Origin: an uncultured Acidobacteriota bacterium
Lineage (GTDB): Bacteria; Acidobacteriota; Blastocatellia; RBC074
Direction of reading: 5' to 3'
Assembly: GCA_963796275.1 (NCBI GenBank)
Contig: CAWCKY010000004.1
Location: 672,001 to 736,000, forward strand
Length of the DNA: 64,000 bases
Within the stretch, counting starts at the first letter, position 1; each line of letters opens with the position of its first letter. The notes beneath the pieces are model-generated. The model saw nothing but the letters and a program-made list of their open reading frames with translations. It was not told where the DNA came from and ran no database searches. The translations under genes and the position numbers were made by a program. This document shows positions 14,579 through 23,381 of the stretch, one piece after another.

Positions 14579-15613
14579 ATGGTTCAACAATTCCTGCGCG
14601 GGCGAATCAAGTCGAGTTATCGATGGCTGACCGCCGTCGCGCTCTTTTTGACTGTGAGCTTTCACTGTGCCGATGCGCGGACGCCGCGCGAACGCAGCTT
14701 TTCTTTCGAGTACGTAGCGGCCGTGAAGAATATCCCGGCGGGCGCCAAAGTGCTGGAGCTTTGGCTGCCTATCCCACACAACGACCCTTACCAGGCGATT
14801 GCAGACCTTCGTATCGAATCGTCACAACCTTACCGGATGCACTCGGCACAGTACGGCAATAAAATGCTGAATATCGAAGTGAAAGACCCTCAGCCGGCCG
14901 GCTTCACCGTCACCCTCAGCTTCAAGGCCACGCGCCGGGAGCACATCAACCCTCTCGTTGGTCAGAGCCATCCAACCGCTTCGCCGAATGAAGAGACTGA
15001 CCGCGACATGGCCAGGTGGCTTCAACCGGACCGTCTGGTGCCTCTCGATGACAAGATCAAAAATTGGGCGGTGGAAGTAGTCGAAGCAGCGCAGGCCAAG
15101 ACCGATTTGGAAAAGACTCGAGCCATCTATCAGCACATCGTTGCGACGGTGAAGTATGACAAGTCCGGGCAAGGTTGGGGACGCGGGGACATTTACTATG
15201 CCTGCGACGCCCGGCGAGGTAACTGCACCGATTTTCATGCGATCTTCATTGGTTATTGCCGAGCGTTGGGTATTCCGGCGCGCTTTGCCATCGGCTTTCC
15301 TTTGCCGTCGGAACGCGGGGCCGGCGAGATCAGCGGTTATCACTGCTGGGCGGAGTATTACGTGAAAGGCCTGGGATGGGTCCCCGTTGACGCTTCAGAA
15401 GCGGCGAAAGACCCCCAACGGCGAGACTATTTCTTCGGAGCGCACGACGAAAACCGCATTGAATTCACGCGCGGGCGCGACCTCACACTCACCCCCAAAC
15501 AGAAAGGCGACGCGCTCAATTATTTCATCTACCCGTACGCTGAGGTAGATGGGAAGCCCTTCTCCGGTGTCGATCGAATCTTCAAATATCGTGATCTGAG
15601 GCAGACACAATAA
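14579..15613 (+). CDS. exported transglutaminase-like (Cys-His-Asp) protein
   Basis: GNCTDFH, YHCWAEYY, GWVPVD triad motifs; hydrophobic leader; GAGGAGG RBS. Confidence 0.88.
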   Translation: MVQQFLRGRIKSSYRWLTAVALFLTVSFHCADARTPRERSFSFEYVAAVKNIPAGAKVLELWLPIPHNDPYQAIADLRIESSQPYRMHSAQYGNKMLNIEVKDPQPAGFTVTLSFKATRREHINPLVGQSHPTASPNEETDRDMARWLQPDRLVPLDDKIKNWAVEVVEAAQAKTDLEKTRAIYQHIVATVKYDKSGQGWGRGDIYYACDARRGNCTDFHAIFIGYCRALGIPARFAIGFPLPSERGAGEISGYHCWAEYYVKGLGWVPVDASEAAKDPQRRDYFFGAHDENRIEFTRGRDLTLTPKQKGDALNYFIYPYAEVDGKPFSGVDRIFKYRDLRQTQ

Positions 15614-15673
15614 GCTCGCTCTGTTTACTCAGTGCCGACATATGTCTCCTCCTCAGATTTGGCTATCCTGTGA

Positions 15674-16372
15674 TTATGGTTTTGCGACGGACTCTAACGC
15701 TTTAGCTAGTAGCTCCGTCTTGAAACCAAATGGACCGGCCTCACTTTTGAAAGCTATCTGCCCGCGACTGTCTATAAGGTAAAGCCTATCCGGCCAGGCG
15801 GTGTAAGCGACCTCCGTCTTATTATCTATAGTGTCGACTAACGCCGGAAATTCTATGCCCAGTTTGGTTGAGCATGTGTCAGCTAAATTCAAGCGCTCAT
15901 CATAGTCCTTCGGATAGTCATACACTACCTTCTCCTTCTCGTTCACTTCCATTTGCCACCCATCGCCGGCATGCGCTTCTTGAATGTACACCAGATAGAA
16001 TTCCACCTGATTTCTATACTGCTGATAGAGTTGGTTGAGAGCGGGAACCTCCCGCCGAAATGGCGGTCAAGTATAGCTACCAAAAACTAATACGACCGGC
16101 TTTTTACCCCTGAAGGCAGAAAGCTGTACTCTTGATTGCCGGTCAAATGTTTCCAAAGAGAAATCGGGAGCGATGTCCCCAGCCTGCAGACTGCCTTTTC
16201 TGGCCGATAACCACATCTTCCTGAAAGGGAAGATCGGGAAAACGACGTTGGATGTTTTAGACATGATCCCGCTAAAAACTTCCGGGCTCTGGCACATCGC
16301 AATGTAGAATCCAACGAACAAGAGCGGATATAACAGCAACAAGGGGAAGGTAATTTTCAATACTCGTCGCAT
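15674..16372 (-). CDS. iodothyronine deiodinase-like selenoprotein (232 aa, Sec at UGA 16069-16067), N-terminal membrane anchor
   Basis: ORFs 16067..16372 and 15674..16006 are in the same frame and join as VLVFGSYT-UGA-PPFRREVPALNQLYQQYRNQVEFYLVYIQEAHAGDGW; APDF, YTAWPDRLY and GPFGF motifs also present. Confidence 0.92.
16041..16066 (-). promoter_or_regulatory. bacterial SECIS-like element
   Basis: UGA, 11-nt spacer CCGCCAUUUCG, then GCGGGA-GGU-UCCCGC perfect stem with GU in the loop; same geometry as the E. coli fdhF SECIS. Confidence 0.75.
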
Positions 16373-16522
16373 ATACTCCTCCCAATTGATTAATAACCGA
16401 CCAGCGGACGCGAGCGATACCGCTCCATCAAGCCGCGCAGCTTCTCATCAGCTTCTTCCTATTAACTCATCCCTGCCGCTACGCGGCAATTCGGCATGGG
16501 CGTTAAACGACCAGACTGAATG

Positions 16523-17809
16523 TCAATAGTTCTTTAGCTGGCGGAGTCCCTCGTAACTCTTGCCATACGTCTCCTGGTAAGTCTTGATCGCTTCGTCTTC
16601 GGAAGGCAGGCGCAGCCCGTCGGTGAAGCGGTTCATATACGCGAAATTGCCGCATTGCAGCAACACTTCCAATGCGCCCTGTTCTTTGAATTCGGCGACC
16701 AGCGCCGCGTAATCGCTCTTCGTCAGTTTCGCCGGCTCGCGCGTGATCTTACGAGCGAAGGTAACCGCCGTCAGTTCGCGCCGAGTCAGCGCTGAATCGT
16801 CTTTCGCCATCGCCATCAGCTTCGACGGATCAACGCCGAGCCGTCGCAGCCCCAAGACCTGATGCAGTGTGCAGTAGCGGCAGCCGTTCGCCATTGAAAT
16901 GGCGAACGAGACGTGCAACTTGATTTCGCGGCTGACGCTCTCGTATTTACGCGTCGTCGTCGTGTAGGCCCGCCACAGGCGACTGATCCCGGGCACCAGT
17001 AAAAACGCGCGCTGCGAATTGGCGATGCCGATATTCCAGTTGTTGGTTGGTGTTTTCGCCCCATTCAATGTCTCGGTAACTGCATTCATTTGATCGTCGG
17101 AGACAAGCGCCACGCGCGCGGGCAGCGGTTCAAATTTTGCCGGAGCGACCTGCGCGACGGGTTCCTTCAAGGCCCATTTCTCGACGGGCAGGTTTGCGCC
17201 TTCACAGAAGCGGAGGAAGTAGTTGAAGAAACAGGTCGTCATCGTCAGTTCGACGATCTGCGAATCGTTGAAGAGAGAGCGCGTCTTTTGAAACTCCGCC
17301 TCGTTGACGCCATGAATGTCGCGGGTCAGCAATTCGGCGTAACTCACTGCCGCCCGTTCGCTCGCGGACATTGCCGCGAAGTCGTTCGCCTGCATCTGCG
17401 CGAGCAGCTTCTGCCCTTTCTCCGAGGCGCGCAGCAATCGCTGCAGATGAATAGCCGGATACGCGCTGCCATAGACCTGTGCGATGCGCAGTCCCATTGC
17501 CATTTTGGCCTCAGGGGCAATTGTGCCGCCGTAAAGATAGGCCTCGAATGCCGCGGCGAAAGGTTTCGCAGCGGCGGGAAGTAATGCCAGAGCCCGAACG
17601 TAATTCGGAATCCTGCCCGCCTCCAATACATCCGCGCCGTTGCAGATGTCGGAGTTTTCATCAGCCAGCGGGACGTTTGGTTGCGCGTTGAGCTTCTGTT
17701 TGGCAGTCTCATTGAGCGCCTCCAGAGAGGTCAGTGAATCTTTCTCCTTCGCGAATGAGGTTGCAAACGATGCAGCGATGATAAGCAATGAGGTGATTAA
17801 GAGTTTCAT
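16523..17809 (-). CDS. exported protein with tandem AhpD/carboxymuconolactone decarboxylase-like domains
   Basis: Signal peptide; two CMD-like repeats; second has ISMANGCRYCTLH (CxxC..H), first has YGSAYPAIH without the cysteines. Confidence 0.85.
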   Translation of the reverse strand: MKLLITSLLIIAASFATSFAKEKDSLTSLEALNETAKQKLNAQPNVPLADENSDICNGADVLEAGRIPNYVRALALLPAAAKPFAAAFEAYLYGGTIAPEAKMAMGLRIAQVYGSAYPAIHLQRLLRASEKGQKLLAQMQANDFAAMSASERAAVSYAELLTRDIHGVNEAEFQKTRSLFNDSQIVELTMTTCFFNYFLRFCEGANLPVEKWALKEPVAQVAPAKFEPLPARVALVSDDQMNAVTETLNGAKTPTNNWNIGIANSQRAFLLVPGISRLWRAYTTTTRKYESVSREIKLHVSFAISMANGCRYCTLHQVLGLRRLGVDPSKLMAMAKDDSALTRRELTAVTFARKITREPAKLTKSDYAALVAEFKEQGALEVLLQCGNFAYMNRFTDGLRLPSEDEAIKTYQETYGKSYEGLRQLKNY

Positions 17810-17875
17810 AAATCTCCAGGGATGGTTATCTACGGCAGCCTCCCCAGACTGCCATACAGGTAATTGAACCCCGCT

Positions 17876-20800
17876 TCAAAAAATAAACCGTGCGCCAATT
17901 TGCAGCGTGCGCGCTTCGAACGCCTGCGTCGACTTGCCGAAATTGCCCAATGAGAGATCAGCGTTCGGCAGGTAGAGATTCACGTTGTTGAACGCATTGA
18001 ACGCCTCAAAACGAAGCTGGATTTGCTTGCCTTCCAGCACCGTAAAGCTGCGCGCGAGCGACAGATCCACGGTTGAATAGTTCGGCCCGCGGAACGTGTT
18101 TCGGCCGAGCGTGCCGGACTGCCCGGGCGCCGGAGCCGGAAAAGCCCCGGCGGGAAATAGCCCGTCGAGAAAGTCTTTCTTCTCGGGCGACGTCTTGATT
18201 GCGCCAGACGCCGATGCGTTCGGGCGGTCATAAAAACCGCCGCCGACCGCGCCGCCGCCGCCATCGCGGTTGTAATCGCCGCCTGCGGTCGAAGCCGCTC
18301 CGTTCCAGACCGAAAACGGTCGACCCGATTGCATCGTGAAGATTGTCGCCAGCTGCCAGCCGTTGACCGCATAAGATATCCATTTGTTTCCGGTCGTCCA
18401 TGACGGCAGCCATAACAATTGCCCCGAGAAGCGATGTGGGATGTCGAAAAGCGAAGGCCCCCGCTCGCAACCCAAACAATCTATATCGACCGCGCCTTTG
18501 CCGGGCTCGGAGTTGTCGGCGAATTGTCCCGTCGAAGTATCGGACGATGTGTCCAACCATTTCGACCGGCGGTAATTCGCCTGCAGCGAAAACCGCTGCG
18601 AGAGATTACGGCGCACTTCCAGGGTCATCGCGTGATAGATCGAATTCACGCCGTTCGTCACAAACAGCAATGTGCTGAAGTTCGGATTGATGCGGTCTTC
18701 CTTGCCGTCGAGCAGATCGCCCGCAAAACGATTGACATCATCGATGCGCTCCAGGTTGACGCCTCTCGTCCCGGTGTATCCGGCTTCGACGACCAGACCA
18801 TCCAATACCTCGCGTTGCAGGTTTACAAACCAGCTCTCGCTGTATTGCGTTTTGATCGTCGGGTTGACGACGAAACCCGTGGGGCGAATAGCGTTCTGCC
18901 CCGGAGGCGTATTGACGCCTCCCTGCGCGTTCAGGCCGCGCCCGAAGTCCGGATTGTACGGCACCGGAATGCCATACAGGATCGTCGTGCCGATCTTATT
19001 GGAAGGCTGCACGACCCCCTGCAACGCATCGGGCGGGAGGGCCCGCGCGCCGGAGATCGATTGGCCGTGATGCGGTTGATACGCGAGGCTGAAGCCCGCG
19101 CGAATCGCCGATTTGCCATCGCCGAAAGGGTCGTAAGCGAGACCGATGCGCGGAGAGAAATTCGTCTTTTCAGGTGTGTAGAGCCGGTCAACGCGAGTCA
19201 GGCTGGCGTTGGCCAATCGTTCGCGGAAGCTGTCGCCCGGGCCGTAGACGATGGAAGACAACCTGCCTTCGCGTTCGCTCGCGTCGCCGAAGTAATCGTG
19301 GCGCAGGCCCAGATTCAGATTGAGTTTTGACGTGACCTTCCAATCGTCCTGAAAGAAAAAGGCGGTCTCGACCTGGGTGAAGTAACGCGGAAAGTTCGTC
19401 CGCTCGCCGGTGTTCGGGTTGACCGTCAGGGTTTGACGAAAGGGCTGATCGGCGATGAAGCTGGCGATGCTCGTGAAGGTATATGTTCCCGCGTCCGGAT
19501 CCGCGATGGATAGCCCTTTGAACAGACGGCGAAATTCTCCGCCTACGCGCAGCACGTGCCGCCCTCGATCCAGCGTCATCACGTCGCGCAATTCGTAGGT
19601 GCGAATCTTCGTCGCCGAGTTGAAGAAATCTCCCCAGCCGGCCGTGAAGCCCGTCGCCGTAATCTGCGGAACGACGGCATCGTCATTGCCGCGATTGGTG
19701 TAGATGGTTTGAAACGCGAATCGCGCGTCGTTGACGGCGCGCGTGAAGACTTTGGTATAGCCCAGATTGGTGTTCGAAAACCTCCCCTCAAATCCGCCTT
19801 TCATTCCACGCATCACGCGGCCCAGCCCTGACTGGTTGACGCTGCCGCTGGTCGCGCCGCTGTCGTCGGCCTGATCTTCAAAAATATAGCGCCCGTAAAT
19901 TTTGTCTTTGCCCTCGTTGAACGAATGATCCACACGCCCCAAAAACTGGCTGTAGCGAACGTAATCACTGATCGTCGTGAAGAGCGTTCCGTTCGTCGGG
20001 ATGAGTTGTCCGTTACCGATATTCAGGCAGTCGTTGTTGGCGACCGCGCAAGCGCCGACTCGCTGCGGCGCGGGCGCGCTATATTGGGTCAGCAGTCGAT
20101 TGGCTATGCTGTTCGGAGCGGTACGACTGACATATTCGCGCAGTTGCGGAGTTTCGACCTGAAAGGACGCCGGGCGACCCGCGGCGTTGCGCGTGCCTTC
20201 ATAACTGCCGAAGAAAAAGGTCTTATCCTTGAGGATCGGCCCGCCCATATTGCCGCCGAACTGATTGAAAACCAGCGGAGGAGTGCCCGTCGCAAAAAAG
20301 TTGCGCGCGTTGAGTGCCGCATTGCGATGGAATTCCCACAGGCGACCATGGAATTGATTCGTCCCGGATTTCGTTCGCAGGTTGATGACGGCCCCGTTGC
20401 CGCGCCCAAACTCGCTGGAAAAATTGTTGGTCTGGATCTGCGCTTCCTCTATCGCCTCGATACTCGGCACGATCGCAGGTTCGCCGGAATTGTTCGAGTT
20501 AGAGTTCATCGCTCCGTCCAGCACGTAGTTATTGCCGCGATAGCGATTGCCGTTGACCGTCACAACCGGCGAATTGGTGAGCTTCGTCGAGTTCGCCGCG
20601 CCGGGAATAAACGTTGCGCCGGAGCTGAGTTTCGGGAGCGCGTATACGTCGCGCTGCGGAATCGGCAACTCGGAGACTTTCTTCTGATCCAGCGTATCCG
20701 CGACGCGCCCTTCCGTGGCGATCTGTAACTGCGTTGTCCCCGCCTCGATGTTGATGACCTCTTCCACATCTCCGACGCTCAATTGAATCTTTAACTCCGC

Positions 20801-21112
20801 CATCTGCCCGACGTTGAGCTTGAGATTCTTGTGCGAGAAGGCTTTGAAGCCGTTCGTTTTCAACGATACGGCGTAGCTGCCGGATGGCAATCCTGCAATT
20901 GTGGCCTGGCCGTTGTTGTCCGTGACAGCCGTTCGCTTAATGCCGGTCTCTTCGTTTGTGACCTCAACCGAAGCCCCGGTGACGGAATTGCCCTGTATAT
21001 CAGCCACACTCAATTTGAGTGTCGCATCTGTGACCTGGGCGATAGTTGCGGGCGAGAGCAGAGCCAAAAGCAATGCAAAGAGAAAAATATGACTTGGGGG
21101 AAGCAGTTTCAT
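17876..21112 (-). CDS. Oar-like TonB-dependent receptor with carboxypeptidase-regulatory-like N-domain
   Basis: Signal peptide, VTNEETG, PSIEAIEE, TKSGTNQFHG, QDDWKVT..LNLGLR, PRIGLAYD, LRFEAFNAFN, terminal RFIF. Confidence 0.94.
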   Translation of the reverse strand: MKLLPPSHIFLFALLLALLSPATIAQVTDATLKLSVADIQGNSVTGASVEVTNEETGIKRTAVTDNNGQATIAGLPSGSYAVSLKTNGFKAFSHKNLKLNVGQMAELKIQLSVGDVEEVINIEAGTTQLQIATEGRVADTLDQKKVSELPIPQRDVYALPKLSSGATFIPGAANSTKLTNSPVVTVNGNRYRGNNYVLDGAMNSNSNNSGEPAIVPSIEAIEEAQIQTNNFSSEFGRGNGAVINLRTKSGTNQFHGRLWEFHRNAALNARNFFATGTPPLVFNQFGGNMGGPILKDKTFFFGSYEGTRNAAGRPASFQVETPQLREYVSRTAPNSIANRLLTQYSAPAPQRVGACAVANNDCLNIGNGQLIPTNGTLFTTISDYVRYSQFLGRVDHSFNEGKDKIYGRYIFEDQADDSGATSGSVNQSGLGRVMRGMKGGFEGRFSNTNLGYTKVFTRAVNDARFAFQTIYTNRGNDDAVVPQITATGFTAGWGDFFNSATKIRTYELRDVMTLDRGRHVLRVGGEFRRLFKGLSIADPDAGTYTFTSIASFIADQPFRQTLTVNPNTGERTNFPRYFTQVETAFFFQDDWKVTSKLNLNLGLRHDYFGDASEREGRLSSIVYGPGDSFRERLANASLTRVDRLYTPEKTNFSPRIGLAYDPFGDGKSAIRAGFSLAYQPHHGQSISGARALPPDALQGVVQPSNKIGTTILYGIPVPYNPDFGRGLNAQGGVNTPPGQNAIRPTGFVVNPTIKTQYSESWFVNLQREVLDGLVVEAGYTGTRGVNLERIDDVNRFAGDLLDGKEDRINPNFSTLLFVTNGVNSIYHAMTLEVRRNLSQRFSLQANYRRSKWLDTSSDTSTGQFADNSEPGKGAVDIDCLGCERGPSLFDIPHRFSGQLLWLPSWTTGNKWISYAVNGWQLATIFTMQSGRPFSVWNGAASTAGGDYNRDGGGGAVGGGFYDRPNASASGAIKTSPEKKDFLDGLFPAGAFPAPAPGQSGTLGRNTFRGPNYSTVDLSLARSFTVLEGKQIQLRFEAFNAFNNVNLYLPNADLSLGNFGKSTQAFEARTLQIGARFIF

Positions 21113-21210
21113 GTTCTATCTACCGATTCAATGTTGTCGTTTATCGTTGAATACCACTTAGTTGGTTAGGATAGGATTTCCCTTTGTGGAAACTTTACGG
21201 CTGGTTCATT

Positions 21211-21226
21211 AGCAATTTCTCCGCCA
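21211..21226 (-). promoter_or_regulatory. candidate sigma54 (-24/-12) promoter of the TBDR-AhpD-selenoprotein operon
   Basis: Minus strand TGGCGGAGAAATTGCT has GG-N10-GC with TGGC and TTGCT, about 100 bp upstream of ATG 21112. Confidence 0.45.
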
Positions 21227-21991
21227 CGGTTTGCAAAGAAGAGGCGCTCCTTTGGCAACTTATTCACACCATAAAAAATAAGAAGTTTTTGCCTTCTAAA
21301 ATTCGGAAGAAGAATACGAATCCAGGTGGCGAGATTTAACGAGGGTGGCGACATATCGCCAATAGACGCGATATATTGCGCCTTTTTAAGAGGGAGTTCC
21401 GCGATCTATGAACATCGACAGTACGGCCAGAATCAGGTTATGGCCGTACTGACAGACATTTTCACCGAGCGGAGAATTGTAAGCGAAATTGTGGAACTTC
21501 TTGGCCGGCCACTCTGCCTATTTTGGTGTAATGCGATGCAGGACGGACGGAAAACGAGGGCTTGGGCCTGTCGTATAGGTTGGACTCTGCACCTTCGCTT
21601 TTGTAACTTGTAAATTTAGAACGGCAAGGACTGATTCTCTAGCAGGTTCACATGCTATTCAGTTCTACACGCTGATAGTCTTCGATGTCTTGCACGCTGT
21701 TCAGGAAATTCAGATCACCACTAAAATGCAGCTCGAATTCACTCAGCCGGGCGGTTATGTTCCAAGTCTCAGCCGGGCGCGTAATGTGTGATTATCCAGG
21801 CTATGAACTTTGGCATTGGAAATCGCCGTGAAGAGCACAATATGTTGTTGTTTCAACCTACAAGGGCTTGATAACGGTTCTGTTGCAAATAAATTTTCAG
21901 CCACAATCTGTGGTAGCATGAATTAGCAGATCACATAAAAATCTTGTGTATTCGGGGCATTTTGCAACAGACCCGAATTGAATATAACCAA

Positions 21992-23005: not shown

Positions 23006-23297
23006 GATATATCCCCTTCGGAGCCGTTTGAACGCTCCAGCCATAAGTCGTCAGGTAACGCTGACATGGCCGGGTCTTTAACTCTATTCACCCGCGCCTC
23101 TGGAGCTGAGTTCCTCGGTTGCGATGAAATACCACACGCCCGGATGAGGCGCGAAATAGGAGAGACTAAACTAAGCCATTAATTTAGGCCGTTAATTAAT
23201 GATGACTTCCTTGGAGCCTATCGTCGCAAAGCTTAGACACGGTATAGCTATCGCATTCCACAATGCGCTGGCAATACACAACTTAAGGAAGTATTAG

Positions 23298-23381
<84 letters not shown>

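Follow-up and report, generated by a model that had tools for sequence, protein, structure and literature searches.

An Acidobacteriota gene that very probably encodes a deiodinase-family selenoprotein through an in-frame UGA codon

The window analysed in our study is a stretch of 64,000 nucleotides (nt) from an uncultured Acidobacteriota bacterium (assembly GCA_963796275.1, contig CAWCKY010000004.1, positions 672,001 to 736,000), and its minus strand carries, at 16372..15674, a single frame of 232 codons whose only interruption is a TGA at 16069..16067. Default open reading frame (ORF) calling divides it into two pieces on the minus strand, both in the same frame, one of 101 aa (16372..16067) and one of 110 aa (16006..15674); when the TGA is read as selenocysteine (Sec, U), the product has 232 residues and includes the segments VLVFGSYT-U-PPFRREV and YIQEAHAGDGW. 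The initial annotation of this DNA had proposed that the two fragments form one frame broken only by TGA, which a direct reading of the minus strand confirmed at these coordinates, and had cited the vertebrate deiodinase motifs FGS(C/A)TUP(P/S)F and YIxEAHxxDGW, whose counterparts we found in the product and could align with those of mouse Dio3 and Dio2. The coding sequence of this deiodinase-like selenoprotein (15674..16372, minus strand, 232 codons) runs from an ATG at 16372-16370 to a TAA stop at 15676-15674, and its match to the family profile PF00837 spans the TGA. Codon 102 of this sequence, the TGA at 16067..16069 (minus strand) within FGSYT-U-PPF, is assigned to Sec from the frame, from the TGA column in orthologues and from homologues with Cys at the same place. 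A putative Shine-Dalgarno-like element, GGGAGGAG, can be read at 16376..16383 (minus strand), 3 nt before the ATG. From the sequence evidence set out below, we consider it very probable that the locus is one gene for a deiodinase-family (PF00837) selenoprotein whose UGA is decoded as Sec.

The family assignment was obtained from profile, sequence and structure comparisons. PF00837 (T4_deiodinase) matched the product with an E value of 3.3e-30 and a score of 105.6 bits (cut-off 27), aligning residues 51-228 with positions 63-235 of the 237 in the profile. Other thioredoxin-fold profiles were also matched: AhpC/TSA (PF00578) with 49.5 bits against a cut-off of 26, which is under half of the PF00837 score over the same residues, Redoxin with 42 bits against a cut-off of 26.6, and likewise Thioredoxin_8, more weakly than T4_deiodinase. 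When all PDB sequences were searched, the best matches were mouse Dio3 (4tr3, E 8.6e-21) and Dio2 (9h48, E 4e-19), followed by ResA-type thioredoxins with E values of 4e-5 or worse. An AlphaFold2 model built with 29 orthologues reaches a mean predicted local distance difference test (pLDDT) score of 92.6 and shows residues 2-26 as a helix at the N-terminus, and the top Foldseek matches of this model were again 9h48 (template modelling score, TM, 0.79 by target over 185 columns) and 4tr3 (TM 0.75), with ResA, AhpE and Bcp after them. From the Pfam range, the PDB alignment, the invariant columns and the model, we delimit a deiodinase-type thioredoxin-fold catalytic domain at residues 51-228 (15689..16222, minus strand), which contains S99, T101, U102, Y129, E132, H134, W139 and R196, together with the clade-specific C167. 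The NCBIfam profile NF038285, a hypothetical equivalog of 347 positions named 'deiodinase family protein', was matched over positions 177-340 with E 3e-61; the score of 207.8 is below its cut-off of 250, and the 176 N-terminal positions of the profile are without counterpart here. Among public relatives we also observed longer proteins, 320-406 aa in length, in which EF-hand domains at the N-terminus are fused to the deiodinase domain (P0094, P0095, P0098, P0103, P0116, P0118, P0120, and P0121), and the two whose sequences were read (P0094 and P0120) have Cys at the site (FGNFTCGPF). These two EF-hand/Cys relatives probably represent the full-length form that NF038285 describes.

The conservation of the TGA itself was examined at the DNA level in several sets of genomes. 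In 61 related genomes, we identified five strong orthologues besides the window gene, each with one internal TGA, and a sample of 401 genomes across the phylum gave a match at E <= 1e-20 in 43 of them, with an internal TGA in 40 and none in 3. TGA occupies the column in 33 of the 34 loci fetched from the phylum and from near relatives, the remaining locus (L075) having TGC, and the two other stop-free homologues of the phylum sample also encode Cys, in FGSYTCPKL (L162) and FGSATCPFT (L163). In a species-genome collection, at least 597 related stretches were found; the best 80 of these were examined, and nearly all lie in metagenome-assembled genomes (MAGs) labelled Acidobacteriota, the nearest being from Blastocatellia (86% identity). 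Each of the 80 has TGA in the Sec column, 74 being recovered by a first pattern and six as FGSHTUPPF. The clade as a whole occurs mainly in MAGs labelled Acidobacteriota (Blastocatellia, Terriglobia, and Bryobacterales), and the TGA column is retained down to about 35% protein identity. The initial annotation had anticipated TGA or Cys in the homologues, and at the DNA level this is what we found throughout, with the sole exception of a TGG locus (L178) from a metagenome. Furthermore, the sequence that follows the TGA behaves as a coding region: in comparisons with six orthologues, nucleotide differences past the TGA concentrate at the third codon position (16/12/65 across the three positions for L083), the same pattern is observed before the TGA, and the orthologue alignment has invariant residues beyond it (D180, P194, R196, K209, G213, and P214). 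It is important to note that three loci (L054, L058, and L068), which are 3 of the 34 loci, 3 of the 33 loci with flanks and 3 of the 43 genomes, come from genomes flagged as unpublished. L054 and L058 are part of the 17-row RNA alignment of the near clade and all three are part of the 33-row RNA alignment, L068 was also used in the covariance-model test and in the fitted alignment described below, and the protein alignment (29 rows) and the structure model leave all three out.

Immediately after the TGA, the transcript has 11 nt, CCGCCAUUUCG, followed by GCGGGA (16055-16050), GGU (16049-16047) and UCCCGC (16046-16041), exactly the hairpin, at the distance of 11 nt, that had been claimed for this place; an optional G.U pair (16056/16040) lengthens the stem, which has 6-7 bp. 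We annotate this element (16040..16056, minus strand, inside the coding sequence) as a putative bacterial Sec insertion sequence (SECIS), from its sequence, its covariation and the G present in the loop of the hairpin after the UGA in 33 of 33 Sec-form orthologues. In 17 near orthologues, 94.1% of the cells of this helix are paired and 0 of 500 shuffles reach its score, both-side changes are found at three of the six pairs (G-C to U-G, G-C to C-G, and A-U to C-G), and slid registers of the helix pair only 43-60% of the cells. The far clade has a different helix, GCGCUC-GGUC-GAGCGC, in the same place. The dinucleotide GU lies in the loop in 30 of the 33 Sec forms, the apical loop starts at nt 18 after the UGA in 23 of them, and the spacer measures 10-12 nt in 26; in the species-genome collection, 72 of the 74 loci scanned have a GGU loop. 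Trained on the near clade, a covariance model recovered 15 of the 16 far Sec forms, L073 being missed; it gave no match on the Cys forms L075 and L162 and just 12.4 bits on L163. In the alignment fitted by this model, 97.9% of the cells are paired in the eight rows that have letters, and four of the six pairs show compensatory changes, although the helix letters are kept in just 8 of 17 rows and such an alignment is biased towards the structure of the model. L073, the sole Sec form that the SECIS covariance model missed, also has an unusual U-N-I-F motif. The position, the G-containing apical loop and the covariation all agree with what had been foreseen for a bacterial SECIS, and they support the assignment of the hairpin to this class of elements. 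The SECIS of the Escherichia coli fdhF type is likewise a hairpin immediately 3' of the UGA and in frame, and its apical loop includes G and U; compared with it, the element described here has a short stem of 6-7 bp and a loop of 3-5 nt, the start of which lies 17-18 nt after the UGA in the near clade. In bacteria, the SECIS hairpin is bound by SelB in complex with Sec-tRNA(Sec), which brings Sec to a UGA that stands in the A site of the ribosome; at this gene, the same complex would bind the hairpin and place Sec at the UGA of codon 102.

The components required for this decoding, for which the initial annotation had suggested a search, were found in the genome, an assembly of 9.46 Mb in 7 contigs with 94.7% completeness. 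The genes selB (335.9 bits, cut-off 242), selA (559.8 bits, cut-off 268) and selD (358.7 bits, cut-off 125) are all present, and a tRNA-Sec was detected with 62.6 bits against a cut-off of 47 and called by ARAGORN as tRNA-SeC(tca), so that every one of the four exceeds its threshold. The selD gene of this genome (G000:C7:302299-303228, L011) is likewise interrupted by an in-frame TGA, close to the N-terminus (VDCAG-U-ASK), after which comes a CCCAG-GUU-CUGGG hairpin. In the window, TGA terminates 15 of the 31 long frames, which indicates that TGA is not globally recoded. The selB gene exceeded its cut-off in all five Sec-form genomes tested. It was also above the cut-off in all three Cys-form genomes, and on this marker the idea that the Cys forms belong to genomes devoid of the Sec machinery was rejected. 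As a side observation, the genomes of relatives also contain weaker thioredoxin-fold matches that often hold exactly one TGA, aligned to residues ~58-135 (for example, G024:C748:7640-7864, G019:C134:135759-135983, and G012:C21:7775-8053); they probably represent further selenoprotein genes of the thioredoxin-like kind, in which Sec would occupy the redox position. In the window itself, a sub-threshold match to the tRNA-Sec model at 23297-23381 (minus strand, 40.9 bits) corresponds to an ordinary tRNA-Leu(taa).

Bacterial deiodinase-like selenoproteins were mentioned in the initial annotation as having been noted before, and they have in fact been in print since 2005, when Zhang, Fomenko and Gladyshev described examples with a bacterial SECIS from the Sargasso Sea (PMC1088965). 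According to the part of that paper that treats this family, its members have homology to PF00837, an in-frame UGA at the active site, Cys in some homologues and a downstream bacterial SECIS whose small apical loop contains a G, all of which are features of the present gene too, and their role was considered probably not related to thyroid hormones and possibly redox. The entries for this family in two reviews, from 2022 (PMC9312934) and 2026 (PMC13188914), list it without a function and with the redox motif UxxC. Two differences from the published family can be pointed out on the basis of these entries. First, the motif of the present clade is U-P-P-F, with Phe105 in 29 of 29 rows of the protein alignment, as in the vertebrate enzymes. 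Second, the published examples are marine, whereas the present clade comes for the most part from MAGs labelled Acidobacteriota. Our literature search, whose coverage did not extend to subscription journals, found no paper that combines deiodinase, Acidobacteria and selenocysteine, and no functional work on bacterial deiodinases. The gene is a further member of the known bacterial deiodinase-like selenoprotein family and introduces no new principle; among bacterial proteins, this family is the nearest kin of the enzymes responsible for the activation and inactivation of thyroid hormone.

The active site was examined in the 29-row alignment of orthologous proteins, to which all residue-column counts given here refer. 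No variation was seen in any of the 29 rows at S99, T101, the Sec column, F105, Y129, E132, H134, or R196; W139 is present in 28. According to the residue assignments given in PMC11592359, Ser99, Thr101, Tyr129, Glu132, and His134 correspond to proton-relay residues of Dio2 and Dio3. The likeness to the vertebrate deiodinases Dio1-3 (represented by 4TR3, mouse Dio3, and 9H48, mouse Dio2), which are the best matches in sequence and in fold, thus includes the motifs FGSxTUPPF and YIxEAHxxDGW, the equivalents of Tyr, Glu, His, and Trp, and the proton-relay residues Ser and Thr. The vertebrate deiodinases have a single membrane anchor at the N-terminus, and such an anchor is also predicted here, in a hydrophobic segment at approximately residues 4-27 (16292..16363, minus strand), from the helix of the model, the Kyte-Doolittle profile and the orthologues. 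The protein begins with MRRVLK followed by about 20 hydrophobic residues, most of the aligned orthologues being likewise basic and then hydrophobic, and in the best Kyte-Doolittle window of 19 residues (residues 9-27) the mean is 2.1; three K/R precede this window, and the net charge after it is zero. By the positive-inside rule, basic residues before the hydrophobic stretch and a net charge of zero after it suggest that the catalytic domain faces the periplasm. In contrast to the vertebrate enzymes, the domain is predicted to lie outside the cytoplasm, and the SECIS is found in the coding sequence right after the UGA instead of in the 3' untranslated region. Regarding individual residues, Arg275 of Dio3 is replaced by Ala212, His219 by Pro154, Cys239 by Pro176 and Cys168 by Tyr100.

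A second Cys is also conserved, in a manner that depends on the clade. Cys167 is present in 15 of the 29 rows, all of them from the near clade, and 13 rows of the far clade have Phe at this column; a Cys at the equivalent position, 65 residues after Sec in an ungapped count, occurs in 80 of the 80 collection loci. In eight far-clade rows, a Cys is found instead at the Val150 column (VCY), so that each clade keeps its own second Cys. Cys167 is a candidate for the resolving residue. The residue map narrows the range of candidate substrates, with the catalytic network kept, the clamp and the distal His replaced and the second Cys specific to the clade.

These elements suggest a periplasm-facing Sec reductase. 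The N-terminal segment would anchor the protein with its catalytic domain in the periplasm, the selenolate of Sec102 would act as the nucleophile with the help of the network of Ser99, Thr101, Tyr129, Glu132, and His134, and the oxidised selenium would probably be resolved by Cys167 and afterwards re-reduced by a thiol donor. As to the reaction itself, our tentative preference, held with somewhat less than even confidence, is the reductive dehalogenation of a halophenol that is neither an iodothyronine nor an amino acid. In the bacterial protein, two features of Dio3, the Arg275 of the carboxylate clamp and the distal His219, have given way to other residues, and thyroid hormones are not expected as substrates. 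The broader proposal, that a widespread, periplasm-facing selenoenzyme of soil Acidobacteriota reductively dehalogenates natural halogenated phenolics with the Sec/Ser/Thr/Tyr/Glu/His machinery of the deiodinase type, seems to us unlikely; if it were true, deiodinase chemistry would be older than thyroid signalling, and soils would have a route of dehalogenation that depends on selenium and requires no corrinoid.

Several observations weigh against dehalogenation. The distal His of the relay (His182 in Dio2, His219 in Dio3) aligns to Pro154, in a column that has Pro in 26 of 29 rows and never His, and the basic residue that clamps the amino-acid carboxylate of the substrate (Arg275 in Dio3, Lys241 in Dio2) aligns to Ala212, in a column of P/A/M/T/V/L that is basic in 0 of 29 rows. 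The neighbouring column 211 has K or R in 12 of the 29 rows. In addition, the AhpC/TSA and Redoxin cut-offs are passed as well, and no conserved neighbour that would indicate a substrate was found in 33 loci with 1.5-kb flanks or in the 80 collection loci.

The same decoding and the same family would also be compatible with another chemistry, in which the protein is a peroxiredoxin-like peroxidase or an envelope thiol-disulfide oxidoreductase similar to ResA/TlpA, Sec102 being peroxidatic or redox-active, Cys167 resolving, and halogens uninvolved. This alternative concerns the chemistry alone, and we regard it as plausible but as falling clearly short of an even chance. It is consistent with the absence of the distal His and of the carboxylate clamp of the deiodinases, with the AhpC/TSA and Redoxin matches whose scores were given above, and with the ranking of ResA, AhpE and Bcp directly behind Dio2 and Dio3 in structural similarity; the Ser at position -3 from Sec and the invariant Arg196 also suit what we take to be a peroxiredoxin-type site. 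In mycobacteria, AhpD reduces AhpC, and an exported CxxC protein of the CMD/AhpD family is encoded 150 nt upstream of our gene on the same strand; this neighbour, however, is retained in only 1 of the 80 collection loci and in 0 of the 33 loci with 1.5-kb flanks. The deiodinase-specific loop YIxEAHxxDxW, whose Tyr, Glu, His, and Trp are near-invariant, sets the family apart from ResA and the peroxiredoxins, and the PF00837 score is double that of AhpC/TSA, both of which weigh against this alternative. A redox function is what the authors of the 2005 report themselves proposed, in its discussion of this family (PMC1088965).

With respect to the decoding of the UGA as Sec, the points against it come from the hairpin in isolation and from residues other than Sec or Cys at the column. 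The folding energy of the 21-nt hairpin region is -11.1 kcal/mol against a mean of -5.1 for synonymous recodings, and 4% of 2000 such recodings fold equally well; by itself, the hairpin stands out only modestly. The minimum free energy (MFE) fold of a single 71-nt sequence prefers another hairpin, with z = -1.57, and RNAalifold predicted no consensus pairs from the ungapped alignment of 33 Sec-form sequences, because loop length and register differ between the clades. The hairpin chosen by the MFE fold, CCGCC-AUUUC-GGCGG right after the UGA, was rejected: it has no covariation in 17 orthologues, and sequence variation breaks it, two of its pairs being open in 5 of 17 and in 4 of 17 cells. The metagenome locus L178 has a real TGG at the column (FGSYTWPPL). 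Of the 120 relatives listed in the public databases, 79 have C at the site, 27 have W, two have R, and G and S occur once each; the motif is absent from the remaining ten. L178 was a short match with 40% identity, it keeps a GGCCCA-GGU-GGGCC hairpin just downstream of the TGG, and the sequence of the locus stops directly after it.

The public records reflect the way in which this gene is handled by annotation pipelines. The initial annotation had expected such pipelines to split the gene, and we did find two N-terminal fragments that end exactly at FGSYT under the name 'hypothetical protein' (P0099 and P0112) and a C-terminal fragment (P0086), together with other entries that have W or G at the column. 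These entries (P0003-P0012 and others), among them the full-length W forms, are named 'peroxiredoxin' or 'thiol-disulfide isomerase' and come mostly from short contigs of the Joint Genome Institute (JGI). The contig of the W protein P0003 was sought in metagenome DNA and was not found there; among the 16 metagenome loci related to this protein, TGA occurs in 13 and TGG in one (L178), the motif being absent from the other two. Most likely, the W at the Sec column results from a gene caller that translates TGA under another genetic code. Two of the listed entries have Arg at the Sec column (FGSYT-R-PPF), one of which, P0002, is 84% identical to the window protein. A correct reading would repair many records, as the gene is halved or mistranslated in public and occurs in 43 of the 401 phylum genomes and in at least 597 stretches of the species-genome collection.

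Two other readings of the TGA were weighed against its decoding as Sec. The TGA could be a true stop, the locus being then a pseudogene or two small genes of 101 aa and of 110 aa, the latter from a GTG at 16006, as default gene calling would have it and as the public fragments P0099, P0112, and P0086 suggest. We consider this extremely improbable: TGA is kept at the column in 33 of 34 fetched loci, in 80 of 80 collection loci and in 13 of 14 motif-bearing metagenome loci, with Cys in three homologues; coding constraint goes on directly past the TGA, ahead of any start codon; a stop there would split the thioredoxin fold at its active site; and the genome has the full Sec machinery. No more credence can be given to a TGA translated into one of the standard amino acids (Trp or Gly under an alternative code, or by near-cognate read-through), which the W in 27 and the G in 1 of the 120 public translations listed and the real TGG of L178 would suggest, when TGA ends 15 of the 31 long frames of the window, the sense replacement seen in genomes is Cys (three cases), a pattern expected for Sec and not for Trp, the W entries sit on short metagenome contigs of ~0.9 to 2.7 kb, related metagenome DNA has TGA in 13 of 14 motif-bearing loci, and a covarying SECIS occurs together with selA, selB, selD, and tRNA-Sec. 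The TGA column, the coding constraint past it and the Sec machinery thus make a pseudogene, two genes and a Trp or Gly read-through all very unlikely, and Sec remains our preferred reading of the codon.

Regarding the surroundings of the gene, a scan of 15300-21500 for promoters and terminators gave sites no more frequent than in shuffled sequences, and among the sequencing runs that contain this genome no RNA run is listed, the two found being DNA runs with shares of 0.08 and 0.05. The selenoprotein gene is the third of a row on the same strand, after a TonB-dependent-receptor-like gene (17876-21112) and a CMD/AhpD-like gene (16523-17809, minus strand) whose product of 428 aa combines an N-terminal signal-like segment with a CMD/AhpD domain (PF02627, E 6.6e-09) and also contains the motif CRYC. 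The CMD/AhpD-like gene was considered as an operon partner and rejected, the one locus of the 80 that keeps it being that of the closest relative (L082, 83% identity). A transglutaminase-like gene was likewise discarded as a conserved neighbour, as it is kept in just 1 of the 33 and 1 of the 80 loci. An association with TonB-dependent receptors was also rejected: such a gene lies within ~4 kb in 20 of the 80 loci, yet the same is true of 20% of random 8.7-kb windows of the organism's own genome, and the link is at chance level because this random-window rate equals 20/80. The genome contains approximately 174 TonB-dependent-receptor-like genes with a carboxypeptidase-regulatory domain (a second count gave at least 65), which make up about 5% of it.

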